Origin: Candidatus Bathyarchaeota archaeon
GTDB taxonomy: Archaea > Thermoproteota > Bathyarchaeia > Bathyarchaeales > Bathycorpusculaceae
Reading direction: 5' to 3'
DNA length: 64,000 nt
Assembly: GCA_963767735.1 (NCBI GenBank)
Contig: CAVYES010000006.1
Coordinates: 480,001 to 544,000, forward strand
In this document: one piece after another, positions 12,712 through 17,828 of the stretch
Layout: every line of letters begins with the position of its first letter
Position numbering within the stretch: position 1 is the stretch's first letter
Position numbers and translations under genes: made by a program
The notes under the pieces: generated by a model
The model's database searches: none
Told to the model about the DNA's origin: nothing
Seen by the model: only the letters and a program-made list of their open reading frames with translations

Positions 12712-12918
12712 TTGAGTTTTGGAACAAAAATCTTCAGTGGCGTTCAAGAAGTGTTTATTTTAGCGTTAATGGTTGTAACTATTTTTGGGCTTTTCTACGT
12801 TCCCATAAGTCTCATGTACAAGGTAGGCATGGCTGCAATTGTGTTCTCAGTAATCTTTTTAATGACGTTGGCAACCCAAATTCTAAGGCAACAAAAAGAA
12901 ACCAAGCCTACCGCCTAA
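12712..12918 (+). CDS. Small two-helix membrane protein
   Basis: Two hydrophobic stretches, basic tail, GGTGA upstream of TTG. Confidence 0.55.
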   Translation: MSFGTKIFSGVQEVFILALMVVTIFGLFYVPISLMYKVGMAAIVFSVIFLMTLATQILRQQKETKPTA

Positions 12919-12927
12919 ACTTACGCT

Positions 12928-12938
12928 TTTCACTTTCA
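12928..12938 (+). promoter_or_regulatory. TTTCACTTTCA box, candidate DNA-damage response element
   Basis: Exact 11-mer ~95 bp upstream of the RadA-like/PolB2 operon; TTTAAAA TATA-like box at ~12979. Confidence 0.6.
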
Positions 12939-13033
12939 CTCTACCCTCCCCTGTTTCGCAACGTCGTTTCTCCGATGCTTTAAAAAGAGTTAGAAGCGCA
13001 CTTGCTGCTCGTCAAGGAATAGGAGAGCAAAGT

Positions 13034-13753
13034 ATGTCTCAAAATTTAATTGTCAAACCTGCAATGGCTCAACCACTATTTTCTTTAAACATGCCAGGTG
13101 TAGACGAGCTTTTTCCAGGATTTGCACCAGGCGACTTCGCCGTGCTTTATGGGTCGCCATCAGTTATTTCATTAACTTCTCTGCTCTGCATAAGAGCGCA
13201 GTTGCCAGTTCAGCTTGGCGGCTTAGGAAGCAACGTTGTCTTTATTGACGGTGGAAACACGTTTAGGCTCTACAAAATCGCTCGTTTAGCTCAACTTCAC
13301 CAGCTAAACCCACGAGAAGTGCTTGAACGCATCTTTATTTCAAGAGCATTCACAGCTTACCAATTAACTTCTCTTATACTTGATAAACTGGAAGAAACCA
13401 TAAAACACTACGATGCCAAACTCGTGGTCATTTCAGACATAGCAGGATTCTTTTTAGATAATGACATTCCACATGAAGAGGCGCAGAGAGTCTACAGCCA
13501 AATCGTCAGTTACCTTTCAAGCTTTGCAAAAAAACACCAAATCATTCTAATCGCAACTTGCCTTCCCTACTCTGACAGCCGAAGAAACAGTTTACTTCAA
13601 GAAATAACCTGCTCAAAAGCAAACACGGTACTATCTTTTAGCAAAACAACCTACACGCGAGAAGTCACATTAGAGAAGCATCCATTTTTCGTTTTAGGCA
13701 CCGCCGAACTTCCCTCCGAAAACCTGACCTTAACCGACTTCATGGGCGCTTGA
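13034..13753 (+). CDS. Inactivated RadA/RecA-like protein (ImuA-like), PolB2-associated
   Basis: RecA-fold motifs VVFIDGGNTF, ISRAFTAYQL, LVVISDI; Walker A degenerate (LYGSPSVISLT). Confidence 0.8.
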   Translation: MSQNLIVKPAMAQPLFSLNMPGVDELFPGFAPGDFAVLYGSPSVISLTSLLCIRAQLPVQLGGLGSNVVFIDGGNTFRLYKIARLAQLHQLNPREVLERIFISRAFTAYQLTSLILDKLEETIKHYDAKLVVISDIAGFFLDNDIPHEEAQRVYSQIVSYLSSFAKKHQIILIATCLPYSDSRRNSLLQEITCSKANTVLSFSKTTYTREVTLEKHPFFVLGTAELPSENLTLTDFMGA

Positions 13754-13754
13754 C

Positions 13755-14027
13755 GTGGGTAAAACAGTTGAATCATACCGCATGGCAATTGAAGATGAAA
13801 TCCGCCGCTGGAACGGTTTCGCAAAAGCATTGCGCAAAGAAGACAGAGAAGCCTTCGACATACTGATGGATGCGTGCAGAAGCTACGCGTCGGCAGGAAG
13901 CAACGCTACTCAACCGTTACCTTTTGAACCAATGATTATGTCAATGCTGGTCTCACAGCAAATCCGTTTGCAGCGGCTGCAGAAGGAATTGGATGGCCTC
14001 AAGCAAAAGCAGCGCGGCGGTTCCTAA
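13755..14027 (+). CDS. Small alpha-helical PolB2 partner (arCOG07300-like)
   Basis: MGKTVESYR...W..FAKALRKEDREAFD pattern, directly upstream of polB2. Confidence 0.78.
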   Translation: MGKTVESYRMAIEDEIRRWNGFAKALRKEDREAFDILMDACRSYASAGSNATQPLPFEPMIMSMLVSQQIRLQRLQKELDGLKQKQRGGS

Positions 14028-16290
14028 TTGCGTTAAAGGATGGCTGCTTGATGTTTATCCCTCTGACCCCGGCAAAGTCGCAGTTTGGGTGATAAGCGAA
14101 AAAGGCGAAAGAATCAAGTTCACTGACACGTTTCAACCCAGCATTTACGTCTCGGGCAAACAAGACGATCTTGAACGTTTAATCAGCCGACTTTTTAACA
14201 ATCAAAAAATCGCTTCAGTAAAGTTCGTGCAAAAATACGTTCAAGCTACAGATACTGAAAAGTCAAGGGTGCTGGAATTAACTGTTAAGGATTGCAGGCA
14301 AATTCCTTCTTTAACGCTTGAAATTTTGCGACTTGGAGATTTCTTGCGTTATGAACTTCACAACTGTGATCTGCAGAATGACCGTTCATACTTTTTTAGC
14401 CGTGACTTGTTTCCGCTTGCACTTGTGGAGTTAAGAGTGGTAAAATCAGGTTTGGATTACACGCTTTTGGATTCGGTTGAAAGCACCGACTACGTTATTC
14501 CTAAACTGCAGGTAATCAAGCTTGACGTGCAAGTTGCTCAGCGGGGGATTATTGCTAATTTTGATGATGCAATCGATAAAATATGTTTAAGGCAAGAGGG
14601 CAAAGAAGATGTTGCCATTGATTACGGTGACGAAGCAACAAAGCTGCTGCAGCTTGTTTATGCAGTAAACGAGTTAGACCCTGACATAATCTTAACAAGC
14701 GCTGGCGACTCGTACCTTTTTCCCTACTTAATTTACAGAGCAACCGTAAACGATGTTTTAGAACAGTTCATTTTAAGCCGAGACAACAAGCCTTTTAAAA
14801 GCAAAACTTCAGCGGGCAACACCTACTTCTCCTATGGACGCACATTTTACAGGGCAGGCACCGTGCGGTTATACGGTAGAATACACATTGACGAAAACAA
14901 CACGTTCATCATAAAGGAAGCAGATTTTGAAGGCTTCATCGAGATAGCGCGAACCTGCCGAGTACCCCTTCACACGGCTGCCCGGTTCTCAATCGGCTCA
15001 AGCATGTCTTCTATGCAGATTTACCAAGCCATAAAAGATGACATTTTAGTGCCTCGAAACAAAAAGATTCCTGAAGCCTTCAAATCAGCCTTTGACTTGC
15101 TTGTGGGCGACCGCGGCGGCTTGGTTTTCGAGCCACGCCTAGGCGTCCATGATTCAGTGGGTGAATTAGATTTCTCTTCCATGTACCCGAGCCTGATGGC
15201 TAAATATAACATTTCGGCTGAAACAGTTCTTTGCAAATGCTGCCCCGATTCACCTATGAGAATGCCTGAGCTGAATTATCATATTTGTACAAAACGGGTT
15301 GGAATAGTACCTAAAACCATCGATTTAGCCTTAACCAAACGGCTGCATTATAAACGCCTAAGAGATGAAACAGGCAACAAACAGCTAAAGCAAGCGTACG
15401 ATATGCGTCAGACAGCGTTAAAATGGATTTTAGTCACATGCTTTGGCTACTTAGGCTTCAAAAACTCAAAATTCGGCACCGTTGACGGACACATAGGCGT
15501 TTGCGCTTTTGGCAGAGACGCTTTTCTTAAGGCAGCACACATTGCTGAAAATCAAGGTTTTGAGGTTGTTCACGGTATCGTCGATTCGTTGTGGCTCAAA
15601 AAGAAAAACGCACCCATAGAAGAATACACTGATTTATGCCGAGTAATCACGCAGGAGATAGGTGTTCCCATAAACTTTGAGGGGCGCTACAAATGGGTGG
15701 CTTTTCTGCCTTCCAAACTGCATCCCCGATTAAGTGTTTTAAACCGTTATTTGGGAGTTATGGAGAACAGTAAGGTTAAGATTAGGGGCTTAGAAGTGCG
15801 GCGTAGAGATACGCCAGGGTTTATTTTTGATGCCCAAACCGAAATGATCAACATATTAGCCTCAGCAGATAATTCATTGGAACTTCAACAGAAAATTCCT
15901 GAAGCATTAAACGTTTTAAAAATTTACAGGCAACGGTTACTTGACGGCGAAGTCCCCATTTCAGATTTGATTGTTACTAAGCATATGTCTAAACAACCGA
16001 AAAACTATAAACAGCATGTTAGCCAAGTTATCGTAGCCCGGCAATTAATTAAGCAAGGCGTGGAAGTTCATGCGGGCAATAACGTGAAATTTGTTTTCAC
16101 GCATTCTGAAGACAAACGATATGAGCGCAGAGTAAAAGCTATGCAGCTTATCGAGAAAGGCGTAACTCCAGACGCGAAAAAATACCTGCTGATGCTTTAT
16201 GTTTCAACCGCTAATCTGTTAAGCTTCTCAGGCTACACCACCAAAAAAGTGTACGACGCCGTCAAAGGGGAGCACCAAAAAACCCTTTAA
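13993..16290 (+). CDS. polB2: Family B DNA polymerase, PolB2 (Dpo2) group
   Basis: Motif A DFSSMYPS; motif B KWILVTCFGY; motif C HGIVDS instead of YGDTDS; KIRGLEVRRRD; exonuclease motifs eroded. Confidence 0.9.
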   Translation: MASSKSSAAVPNCVKGWLLDVYPSDPGKVAVWVISEKGERIKFTDTFQPSIYVSGKQDDLERLISRLFNNQKIASVKFVQKYVQATDTEKSRVLELTVKDCRQIPSLTLEILRLGDFLRYELHNCDLQNDRSYFFSRDLFPLALVELRVVKSGLDYTLLDSVESTDYVIPKLQVIKLDVQVAQRGIIANFDDAIDKICLRQEGKEDVAIDYGDEATKLLQLVYAVNELDPDIILTSAGDSYLFPYLIYRATVNDVLEQFILSRDNKPFKSKTSAGNTYFSYGRTFYRAGTVRLYGRIHIDENNTFIIKEADFEGFIEIARTCRVPLHTAARFSIGSSMSSMQIYQAIKDDILVPRNKKIPEAFKSAFDLLVGDRGGLVFEPRLGVHDSVGELDFSSMYPSLMAKYNISAETVLCKCCPDSPMRMPELNYHICTKRVGIVPKTIDLALTKRLHYKRLRDETGNKQLKQAYDMRQTALKWILVTCFGYLGFKNSKFGTVDGHIGVCAFGRDAFLKAAHIAENQGFEVVHGIVDSLWLKKKNAPIEEYTDLCRVITQEIGVPINFEGRYKWVAFLPSKLHPRLSVLNRYLGVMENSKVKIRGLEVRRRDTPGFIFDAQTEMINILASADNSLELQQKIPEALNVLKIYRQRLLDGEVPISDLIVTKHMSKQPKNYKQHVSQVIVARQLIKQGVEVHAGNNVKFVFTHSEDKRYERRVKAMQLIEKGVTPDAKKYLLMLYVSTANLLSFSGYTTKKVYDAVKGEHQKTL

Positions 16291-16463: not shown

Positions 16464-17828
16464 GTGAAGTTCTATGATAGACGGATTGAACTTAAGGCAT
16501 TAGACGTAGCTTGTTCCCAAAAAGGCGCAGAGATGATAGTAGTTAGTGGGCGCAGGCGAATTGGCAAGAGCAGGCTCATTAATGAATTTCTAAAAGAAAG
16601 AGACGCGGTCAAGATTCTGATAGTACCAAAAGAAGAGAAACAAGTAGCAGGCGATTTTGCAGTTGCCCTCGCTGATGGTTATACTCCTTCACTAAGTAAC
16701 GTGGAACAAGCTCTTGAATACTATTTCAACAACTCAAAGAAACAGATTCTCTACATAGATGAGTTTCCAAATCTTATCGAAGTGAACGCTTCAATACCAT
16801 ACGTCTTTCAAAGGATTTGGGAGAAATACAAGGAAACAAGTTCAAGAAAACTCATTTTTTCAGGCTCGTATGTTAGCATGATGAACAAGATATTTACTCA
16901 TCAGAAAGCACCCCTTTTCAACAGAGCAAGTTATCAGTTCATACTTCAACCATTAACATTAAGAGTTGTTTGGGAAATTCAAGAAGATCTAGGAGTGGAT
17001 GCCTTGGAAAAGATTAGAAACTACTGCATACTTGGAGGAGTGCCTTTCTATTACGAATTGCTTGAAAAAAGGGGAATTGCGAATCCTGTAAATGATCTCT
17101 TTTTTGACGTCGCCGCACCTCTCAAGGAAGAAGGGCAAAATGTACTCAGACAAGAATTTGGATTCTCCTATAAGAAATATTTCTCAATAATAGAAGCGAT
17201 AGGCGCAGGCGTTGTCACAGGCAGCGAAATAGCAAACAGACTTGGTGTGTCGCAGACAACGCTCTCTAAATATATAATTTCACTACAACAAGACTTTCAA
17301 CTTGTAGAGCGGAACGTGCCGTTTGGGCAAAACATCCACAGAAGCAAGAAAGGACTATACTCAATCAAAGATAACACCATCGCCTTCTGGTTCGCCCACG
17401 TTTATGGCAAGCCCGAACAACCCAATAAAGAGATGATTAACGAATTTGTCAGTAAGAGGTTCGAAATGTTTTGCAAGGACTTTTTTGCAGCATACTTAAA
17501 GGTCAAAGGTGAAAAAGTAATCAGAACGGGACGCTGGTGGGGGCAAGTGGAGGTTACGCCAAATAAGTTCGAAGAAAAAGAGATAGACTTCATTACAGAA
17601 ACAGAAAGCTGCATGTATTTTGCAGAGTGCAAATGGACAAACAAAAAAATAGGTCTAATGGGCCTCAACACCACTCTTGAAGAATCATCTAAAGCTATAA
17701 AAACCAAAAAAACTGTTAAGAAAGTGCTCTTTTCAAAATCGGGGTTCGACTTAAATGAAGCCAATGACGTTTTGCTGTTTAATCCTGAAAGGATAGAAAG
17801 TGAAATAAAAAGGCTGCATGGCGTGTGA
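16464..17828 (+). CDS. Archaeal AAA ATPase with wHTH and DUF234/PD-(D/E)XK C-terminus
   Basis: FYDRRIEL, GRRRIGKS, IDEFP, LGGVPFY, EIDF...ECKW. Confidence 0.88.
   Translation: MKFYDRRIELKALDVACSQKGAEMIVVSGRRRIGKSRLINEFLKERDAVKILIVPKEEKQVAGDFAVALADGYTPSLSNVEQALEYYFNNSKKQILYIDEFPNLIEVNASIPYVFQRIWEKYKETSSRKLIFSGSYVSMMNKIFTHQKAPLFNRASYQFILQPLTLRVVWEIQEDLGVDALEKIRNYCILGGVPFYYELLEKRGIANPVNDLFFDVAAPLKEEGQNVLRQEFGFSYKKYFSIIEAIGAGVVTGSEIANRLGVSQTTLSKYIISLQQDFQLVERNVPFGQNIHRSKKGLYSIKDNTIAFWFAHVYGKPEQPNKEMINEFVSKRFEMFCKDFFAAYLKVKGEKVIRTGRWWGQVEVTPNKFEEKEIDFITETESCMYFAECKWTNKKIGLMGLNTTLEESSKAIKTKKTVKKVLFSKSGFDLNEANDVLLFNPERIESEIKRLHGV

Follow-up and report, generated by a model that had tools for sequence, protein, structure and literature searches.

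A composite TTTCAC promoter element common to the PolB2 mutasome operon and radA in Bathyarchaeia: a candidate DNA-damage box

Whether archaea possess a conserved SOS-like circuit has been in question since the first ultraviolet (UV) transcriptome studies. To our knowledge archaea are without LexA, and we know of a defined damage element together with its factor (Orc1-2) in the Sulfolobales only. The present analysis concerns a stretch of 64,000 nucleotides (hereafter the window; contig CAVYES010000006.1 of assembly GCA_963767735.1, positions 480,001 to 544,000 of the forward strand) from a Candidatus Bathyarchaeota archaeon, which carries an operon coding for the DNA polymerase PolB2 and two partner proteins, and the composite promoter of about 60 bp that precedes this operon. 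The promoter has four conserved blocks at fixed spacing and is found in a reduced or compressed form in at least three phyla.

The operon type has been described before. Makarova, Krupovic and Koonin (2014; PMC4104785) linked PolB2, arCOG07300 and an inactivated RadA and discussed a replication-related role, given the neighbouring arORC2 genes. The names iRadA and PPB2 for the partners come from Timinskas, Timinskas and Venclovas (2025; PMC11791011), who counted the order iRadA-PPB2-PolB2 among the main operon types, described an MGRT arm in PPB2, likened a PolB2:iRadA:PPB2x3 model to Pol V and gave high-confidence complex models for 40 operons, other than the one studied here. PolB2 operons are horizontally mobile, the bacterial ones adjoin lexA, and orc1/cdc6 is enriched next to polB2 (PMC11791011, PMC4104785); PolB2 (Dpo2) is damage-inducible in Sulfolobus (PMC11791011). 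The accessible text of these two papers describes no promoter element.

Candidate damage elements have been reported separately. In Halobacterium NRC-1, Boubriak et al. (2008; PMC2556686) placed the 11-mer TTTCACTTTCA about 50 nt before the radA1 start, with seven matches in the genome, four of them at UV-B up-regulated genes including radA1; the motif lies 5' of the TATA box of radA1, top6B, vng17 and vng280, and similar sequences were noted at radA of other haloarchaea and Methanospirillum. The Sulfolobus damage element 5'-AATAGTTTCRGWDTACTCWS-3' (core ANTTTC) is bound by Orc1-2 and needed for induction (Sun et al. 2018; PMC6061795). Chen et al. (2023; PMC10123103) described the Orf4/Orf7/Orf8 module of SNJ2, which includes an Orc1/Cdc6 homologue, as a virus-borne damage switch. 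The operon, and the 11-mer with its UV and radA link in haloarchaea, are hence already published. In our search, which left subscription journals and supplements outside, no paper was found that gives the extended composite or its presence in Bathyarchaeia, Thermoplasmata and other Thermoproteota, or that places it before PolB2 operons or in viruses with PPB2-like genes; no follow-up of the 2008 Halobacterium motif was found in the literature searched.

Reading of the intergenic stretch 5' of the operon (12919-13033 of the window) revealed the following elements:

12928..12940, plus strand: distal box TTTCACTTTCACT, a tandem of two TTTCAC units that includes the published Halobacterium 11-mer
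12928..12938, plus strand: the 11-mer TTTCACTTTCA, an exact match read in the sequence
12944..12953, plus strand: C-rich element CCCTCCCCTG, beginning 3 nt past the distal box
12963..12970, plus strand: proximal element GTCGTTTC, about 9 nt 5' of the TATA box
12979..12986, plus strand: TATA-like box TTTAAAAA, 50 bp from the start of the core TTCACTTTCA and 40 bp past the end of the 11-mer
13022..13027, plus strand: putative Shine-Dalgarno-like GGAGAG, 7-12 nt before the ATG at 13034

The composite promoter of about 60 bp thus comprises TTTCACTTTCACT, CCCTCCCCTG, GTCGTTTC and a TATA box 50 bp downstream. The initial annotation of this DNA had claimed an exact 11-mer some 40 bp upstream of a TATA-like box and its identity with the motif of UV-induced Halobacterium NRC-1 genes; the sequence bears out the first and PMC2556686 the second. 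It had also pointed to the Sulfolobus ANTTTC element inside the motif. ACTTTC is indeed present at 12932-12937, but such a match, with five bases specified, is a weak criterion and nearly uninformative by itself. The C.CTC(C) columns of the C-rich element are conserved in both the polB2 and the radA promoter sets described below. The proximal element reads (C/A)GTTTC in 8/9 strong sites of this genome and has a conserved GtcgTT in 55 polB2 promoters; judged by its letters, it appears to be like the AGTTTC element of Sulfolobus.

The architecture of about 60 bp is common to nine sites of this genome, five of the nine exact copies of the 11-mer and four one-mismatch copies, and exceeds chance. 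A nhmmer profile constructed from the nine sites finds exactly those nine (E 6.5e-18 to 4.2e-12, the next match at 1.1e-4), and R1, a sequence-only model of 29 such promoters, gives 12 sites at E<=1e-3. A start codon is located +89 to +137 from the motif start at 8/9 sites, and +91 to +107 at six of them. The genes behind the nine sites code for two RadA (353 aa and 422 aa), the PolB2 operon, two PPB2 paralogues and small proteins. The identity of the two box-driven RadA is clear (Rad51, 1.6e-84 and 1e-83), and their boxes, C5:134767 and C7:93893, are placed 97-98 nt before the radA start codons. The PPB2 paralogues are 51% and 64% identical to the PPB2 of the operon and have the same MGKTV arm. 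Other genes of the set code for a 45-aa Cys-rich protein, then a CxxCxxCC-domain protein, and for a 77-aa protein (own copy L096:350-583) which belongs to a family of 75-79 aa with 950 clusters in Bathyarchaeia and no Pfam family; the 120 listed are at least 73% identical. The initial annotation had suggested a scan for the motif at repair genes: radA and the PolB2 operons carry it, whereas rpa, nrd and top6 are absent from the 12 sites of this genome, those genes not having been located one by one.

Conservation was analysed in 79 related PolB2 loci, almost all of them assigned by label to Bathyarchaeia or Bathyarchaeota; two, L037 and L074, had too little upstream DNA and were left out, so that 77 loci were evaluable. 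Related genomes are not independent samples, and the counts are to be read accordingly. The core TTCACTTTCA, with at most one mismatch, on the coding strand and 90-1500 nt upstream of polB2, was present in 54/77 loci and, with nhmmer matches (E<0.01) added, a box was present in 64/77; the rate of the core was 0.58 per kb upstream of polB2 against 0.070 per kb in the remainder of the loci. The position of the box follows the first gene of the operon, being near -1070 to -1100 if iRadA is present and near -400 if only PPB2 precedes polB2. The core was also found at 50/80 radA loci, 49 of which have it 60-300 nt upstream. TATA lay at an offset of 50-52 bp from the core in 45/55 polB2 promoters and of 50-51 bp in 45/49 radA promoters, and column statistics revealed conserved blocks with variable spacers between them. 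We regard the box as very probably a selected cis-regulatory element.

All 15 congeneric genomes contain R1 sites (2-16 per genome), and ten genomes from other families of the order contain 0-3. The 12 sites of the complete congener G009 precede radA, the PolB2 operon, the same 45-aa gene, two copies (75 and 79 aa) of the gene that is 77 aa here, a 121-aa protein, a LigD 3'-phosphoesterase (PF13298, 6.2e-40) and a provirus-like block with a winged helix-turn-helix (wHTH) gene; a few are without an obvious first gene. Extra boxes in the polB2 loci of relatives drive PPB2-like fragments and the 422-aa form of radA.

The shared 60 bp might represent one promoter copied by duplication and mobile elements, with no selection for a common factor. 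Of the nine sites, two are located in related provirus-like regions and are nearly identical, radA is multi-copy with one copy beside an integrase and others at contig ends, and the mobility of PolB2 operons (PMC11791011) would favour such copying. On the contrary, the genes behind the other sites are mutually unrelated, and conservation is in blocks (box, C-run, GTTTC and TATA) with variable spacers and the fixed offset of 50-52 bp; the blocks persist before orthologues with only 56-70% protein identity and occur in other phyla at different spacing. Copying without selection is accordingly judged very unlikely.

The initial annotation had further proposed that the box is common to distant archaeal lineages, and this was borne out: beside polB2 and radA of Bathyarchaeia it occurs at haloarchaeal radA, and a shorter form occurs in Thermoplasmata and in other families of the phylum. 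Among six haloarchaeal megaplasmids carrying radA, the exact 12-mer TTTCACTTTCAC is present in 3/6 radA promoters (Halorussus vallis, Halorussus aquaticus and Natronococcus sp.), where it is followed by a C-run (CTCTCCAG, CTCCCCAG and CCCCCTG, respectively) and, some 17 nt on, by a TATA box; two others (Haladaptatus) carry TCACTTCCACT or ACACTTCCACT, and nothing similar was seen in the sixth. The haloarchaeal and bathyarchaeal promoters have in common the identical 11-mer, its location 5' of the TATA box and radA as a core target; at haloarchaeal radA the identity extends to 12-13 nt and a C-run follows. They differ in that the box precedes TATA by 40 bp here, with two further conserved elements between, and by about 16-17 nt in haloarchaea, and in phylum; the regulon here includes the PolB2 operon and provirus genes, with no top6B seen.

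In high-GC Thermoplasmata, cACTTTCAC(C/G)GACCCCTCCCC is placed before PPB2 and again directly before polB2, and CCCCTCCCC comes after ACTTTCAC. The combination of CTTTCA, 2-8 nt and CCCTC gave 21 matches near genes in 18/24 polB2 loci, compared with 2 in 260 kb elsewhere, and the composite also precedes an iRadA gene. Upstream of radA, 5/5 Thermoplasmata genomes carry GATAGTTTCAC, 3-4 nt, a C-run, about 12 nt and a TATA box; GATAGTTTCAC shares ATAGTTTC with the Sulfolobus consensus. The links to Thermoplasmata and to Sulfolobus are based on short words in common and on position. For other families of the own phylum a composite fixed beforehand (TTTCAC, at most 6 nt, then C[CT]CTC or CCCC) was looked for at 30 radA loci; it was present within 200 nt upstream of radA in 5/30, with one match elsewhere (0.83 versus 0.004 per kb), and in 7/30 when TTTC[AG]C was allowed. 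The remaining 23 loci have other sequences or none at this position, one of them AGTTTCGG. The number of TTTCAC-type units varies, being one in Thermoplasmata, two in haloarchaea and also two in Bathyarchaeia, the last with a proximal GTTTC in addition, which suggests that the regulatory factor may bind as one or several copies.

We asked how these data bear on a predicted function. The composite is probably the binding platform of a LexA-independent DNA-damage regulator, a reading of promoter sequences that involves no guess on the factor. That the box answers to DNA damage or replication stress is, by analogy, likewise probable, because UV-B-induced Halobacterium genes carry the same 11-mer and because of the repair content of the regulon. 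In the mechanism that we propose, the same composite would drive about 9-12 promoters per genome, those of radA and the PolB2 operon, of some small conserved proteins and of the PPB2-like genes that come first in head-tailed proviruses. The blocks 5' of TATA would recruit a sequence-specific factor which switches these promoters together upon DNA damage; RadA recombination, error-prone bypass by PolB2 and end-processing would rise together, and proviruses would get their cue.

Several observations weigh against such a regulon. The bare 11-mer is not enriched, with 9 copies in the genome (4+5) compared with 12 (8+4) for the reversed-word control, 5 matches with one mismatch were found in the window against 3.96 expected, and a loose core-plus-TATA scan gave 37 matches against 35 in the control. 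These word counts are in line with a chance match to the Halobacterium motif in an ordinary constitutive promoter; that explanation is in practice refuted by all the conservation results (nine-site profile, polB2, radA, TATA offset, congeners and other phyla), and we give it almost no weight. Since the loose scan hardly exceeds its control, only the full composite carries signal, and since the looser scan adds nothing, the regulon is small. By the criteria used, 13/77 polB2 loci and 30/80 radA loci are without a box, the 20 most distant radA loci (70-77% protein identity) being mostly without the core. No open reading frame (ORF) explains the site C4:486376, which has no gene within 400 nt, and several regulon members are small proteins without assigned function. 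Neither of the two intact Orc1/Cdc6 genes of this genome has a box upstream or adjoins the operon. Metatranscriptome contigs (two runs, no treatment) are confined to 13047-14079 (90-99% likeness) and, in one run, also 12748-12944; polB2 is uncovered in both, and the contigs, which carry no strand or start, are no evidence either way.

Further points of this kind come from other lineages. Three haloarchaeal plasmid polB2 operons are without the exact box; two have GAGTTTCCTGAAAC before TATA and the third has neither. These three plasmids hold no exact box anywhere, only one-mismatch words, which on two of them are near control counts. The Thermoplasmata radA box is a variant, AGTTTCAC, which shares only TTTCAC and the C-run with the bathyarchaeal box. 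The function of the Halobacterium motif rests on correlation, and the accessible text of PMC2556686 reports no mutagenesis or binding. Horizontal transfer of PolB2 operons could also carry promoters along; a host regulon is preferred to a co-transferred promoter because the radA promoters carry the box.

The composite could be real and nevertheless serve another signal, namely cell cycle or replication phase, growth state or virus infection, in which case the Halobacterium UV link would be indirect. RadA and polymerases are also replication-associated, the small regulon members have no assigned function, genes of the rpa, nrd and top6 types are missing from the 12 sites, and the replication role discussed from neighbouring arORC2 (PMC4104785) points the same way. 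Damage as the signal is favoured by the four of seven Halobacterium copies at UV-B-induced genes (PMC2556686), the damage-inducible PolB2/Dpo2 of Sulfolobus, the LigD 3'-phosphoesterase added by the G009 regulon and the boxed first genes of proviruses, which fit the damage-triggered induction known for other archaeal viruses. We consider another signal rather unlikely.

Two intact Orc1/Cdc6 genes are present in this genome. The second, divergent paralogue (C3:79695-80876) has its best solved match in 1fnn (146 bits), which we take to belong to the Orc1-2 clade, and the other paralogue in 2qby_A (376 bits). An Orc1-2-type factor is a candidate because of the Sulfolobus precedent, the enrichment of orc1/cdc6 next to polB2 and this second divergent paralogue; orc1/cdc6 adjoins the PolB2 operon in 3/3 haloarchaeal plasmid loci. 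By this analogy, an Orc1-2-like factor is a tentative proposal. Compared with the Sulfolobus element, the box here is likewise TTTC-centred, near a TATA box and LexA-independent, with (C/A)GTTTC as its proximal element; Sulfolobus has a single copy of its element, located 23-55 bp 5' of the ATG, and no tandem TTTCAC or C-run is described in the accessible text (PMC6061795).

An Orc1-2-like factor would presumably act as an activator. Alternatively, the box may be the operator of a repressor with LexA-like logic, possibly the regulon protein of 75-79 aa itself, rather than the site of an Orc1-2-like activator. Tandem short direct repeats are typical of the sites of small dimeric repressors, the 75-aa protein is behind a box in both genomes examined, and for a protein so widespread in Bathyarchaeia (the 950 clusters mentioned above) self-regulation would fit a repressor. 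A position 50 bp 5' of TATA, as found here, is more usual for archaeal activators than for repressors. In addition, the 75-aa protein is without a match to a DNA-binding family, its predicted structure has a mean pLDDT (predicted local distance difference test) of 56 and is unusable, and the box occurs in other phyla, whereas the protein was looked for in Bathyarchaeia only. A repressor is therefore held to be improbable, and activator logic is, more weakly than the regulon itself, preferred.

A broader proposal is possible but doubtful: TTTCAC plus the C-run might be an ancient pan-archaeal damage element read by one conserved regulator, most plausibly of Orc1-2 type. The winged helix of Orc1-2 would then read TTTCAC and its AAA+ insert the C-run, as initiator Orc1 does at origin boxes; radA and the PolB2 mutasome would be coupled in Thermoproteota, Thermoplasmatota and Halobacteria, and the ANTTTC of Sulfolobus would be a reduced form. 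The narrower observation describes a compact conserved regulon: one box is found in front of radA in several phyla and likewise in front of provirus genes and the operon of the error-prone PolB2. The box is a concrete DNA bait for the regulator in tractable haloarchaea, offers a testable link among recombination, mutagenesis and virus induction, and opens a route to predicting damage regulons in uncultured archaea such as Bathyarchaeia.

The operon behind the composite has three genes:

13034..13753, plus strand: iRadA, 239 aa, RadA fold without Walker A loop or helix-hairpin-helix (HhH) domain
13755..14027, plus strand: PPB2 (arCOG07300), 90 aa, a small protein beginning MGKTVESYR
13993..16290, plus strand: PolB2, 765 aa, a polymerase of family B in which motif C has lost its first Asp (IVD) and Exo I is degraded (DVQ)

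PPB2 starts with GTG one base past the TGA of iRadA, the ORFs of PPB2 and PolB2 overlap by 35 nt, and a gap of 173 nt separates PolB2 from the following gene. The 239-aa protein matches Pfam Rad51 (8e-15) and the RadA/RadB models, with scores that in every case fall far short of the curated cut-off. When it was aligned with both RadA of this genome, GS--PSVIS was seen in place of GE(Y/C)(G/D)SGKSQ, so that the GxxxxGK(S/T) loop is absent, and the first ~100 RadA residues, and with them the N-terminal HhH domain, were missing. iRadA is read as an ATPase-dead RadA because the Walker A loop is absent in this alignment. Its C-terminus, NLTLTDFM, compared by eye with the published QxxLxxFF, resembles a putative PCNA-binding tail.

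Family searches with the 90-aa PPB2 gave no Pfam or NCBIfam match and no Y-family match; PPB2 is a putative three-helix protein and differs in kind from ImuB, a dead Y-family polymerase. Its N-terminal MG(K/R)T arm and Arg9 fit the published MGRT motif, and M1, G2, T4, V5 and R9 are invariant in an alignment of the operon PPB2, its paralogues and one Thermoplasmata PPB2. PolB2 matches PF00136 (3.5e-38) and NF004418 (4.1e-108, though below the cut-off of that model). Alignment with the solved PolB 5mdn indicated HGIVDS for YGDTDS in motif C and DVQ for DIE in Exo I, with motif A intact (LDFSSMYPSL). The order iRadA-PPB2-PolB2, iRadA first, is found in about 50/79 related loci and PPB2-PolB2 without detectable iRadA in 14/79, and PPB2 is immediately 5' of polB2 in 68/79.

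These features are the same as those of the PolB2 mutasome: gene order and coupling, an ATPase-dead RadA without N-terminal domain, a PPB2 of about 90 aa with the MG(K/R)T arm, and a PolB with I-x-D for D-x-D and a dead exonuclease. Nothing essential differs in the proteins, and no orc1/cdc6 is adjacent here. The three genes are almost certainly an iRadA-PPB2-PolB2 operon of the kind already known, one more member, in which PolB2 would be a proofreading-less translesion or extender polymerase with two helper proteins. The initial annotation had described the ORFs, the RadA-like protein lacking Walker A, the small protein and the HGIVDS motif correctly, and had called the system ImuABC-like; this name does not apply, the polymerase being of family B and PPB2 without a Y-family match. 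An error-prone polymerase with a RecA-fold helper and a small or inactive accessory protein is also found in ImuA-ImuB-DnaE2 and Pol V (UmuD'2C-RecA), which is an analogy only. The polymerase is of family C in DnaE2 and of family Y in UmuC, and PPB2 is unrelated to ImuB or UmuD; LexA/SOS-box control of ImuA-ImuB-DnaE2 has its place taken here by an archaeal TATA promoter with the TTTCAC composite, in a genome that was not searched for lexA.

The two PPB2 paralogues among the nine sites are located in provirus-like regions. One (C4:169887) heads a same-strand block, C4:155900-169887 (L098), with genes for PadR/MarR-like wHTH proteins, a large terminase (PF03237, 2.9e-11), a capsid protein of HK97 type (PF25209, 9.2e-8) and a possible portal, the paralogue being 3.4 kb upstream of the terminase and capsid genes. 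Downstream of the other, at 2.5 kb and in the same orientation, is an integrase-like gene whose Pfam score is below the curated cut-off. Only two IMG/VR contigs contain a PPB2 relative, and the box precedes the PPB2-like gene in both: L276 reads TTCACTTTCACcctaCCCCCTACTG...GTCGTTTC...TTTTTAAG, followed by wHTH and PadR-like genes and a terminase, and L277 has the diverged CTCACTTTAAC...GTCTCCACTG, with tail genes upstream. The PPB2-like gene of L277 is directly followed by a TATA-binding protein gene (L277:5938-6966; PF00352, 1.9e-40). No viral orc1 was detected in the proviral and viral stretches examined. As in the SNJ2 module and SSV1 F55-RadA, a provirus switch would be tied to host DNA damage without LexA; unlike those, the proviruses here appear to borrow the host box itself, with a PPB2-like gene placed behind it. 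If this is true, head-tailed viruses with a boxed PPB2-like gene would gain a signal for SOS-like induction and might reach the host mutasome as well.

Minor observations were made on the genes behind the boxes. The 422-aa RadA, which has a long acidic N-terminal extension, adjoins a tyrosine integrase (C5:134767-139400, L099), and this form of radA also follows polB2 in L059. Near-identical radA copies are situated at two contig starts (C5:1-1278 and C6:1-1276), one with three in-frame TGA. This radA may ride on, or be the target of, a mobile element. A box-driven gene at C6:194389-194728 (L101:390-729) is split into ORFs of 47 aa and 72 aa, and the congener G009 has a single 121-aa ORF (L358); the split is a frameshift or an assembly error. 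Among the source annotations of the 75-79-aa protein (L363:152-379 and relatives), some (aldolase subunit, aminotransferase) are plainly in error. A further, weaker site like the box (C4:545267-546411; R1 E 1.1e-6) lies about 260 nt 5' of a 295-aa protein that is transposase-like by eye, and recalls the near-match before the UV-induced transposase npa in Halobacterium.

Further candidates were rejected. The PadR gene 400 nt 3' of C4:486376 is not a conserved member, as the composite is missing from all 24 further loci with a PadR homologue, two of them from this genome and 22 from its relatives. The gene just 3' of polB2 (window 16464-17828), which codes for an AAA+ ATPase (PF01637) with a helix-turn-helix and DUF234, is present in 0/79 related polB2 loci and is a chance neighbour. 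A metagenome-assembled genome (MAG) labelled Methanocella was dropped as a sample of another phylum, its only RadA being of bathyarchaeal type.

Bathyarchaeal-type polB2 or radA contigs (76-84% identity) occur in MAGs labelled Limnocylindrales, Nanoarchaeia, Methanocella and Acidiferrales, and a MAG labelled Ignavibacteriaceae has a contig with a 35%-identical PolB2; these odd contigs (L029, L121, L128, L157 and L248) are probably mis-binned or mislabelled. The representative search for PolB2 gave 6148 matches, and none of the best 150 had haloarchaeal acidic composition. On the megaplasmid of Halobacterium sp. GN101 (L283:6517-6850), GGAAACG(T/C)GG repeats, two of them in the longer form GGAAACGTGGGGTG, stand 5' of the orc4 adjoining the PolB2 operon; they look like origin-recognition boxes and, in combining a GAAAC word with a G-run, resemble the present box, though in reverse order. 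The radA genes of two Thermoplasmata genomes (L261/L268, G002; L262/L269, G001) have frames of 846-848 aa in which the Rad51 match is split in two, which suggests that they carry an intein.

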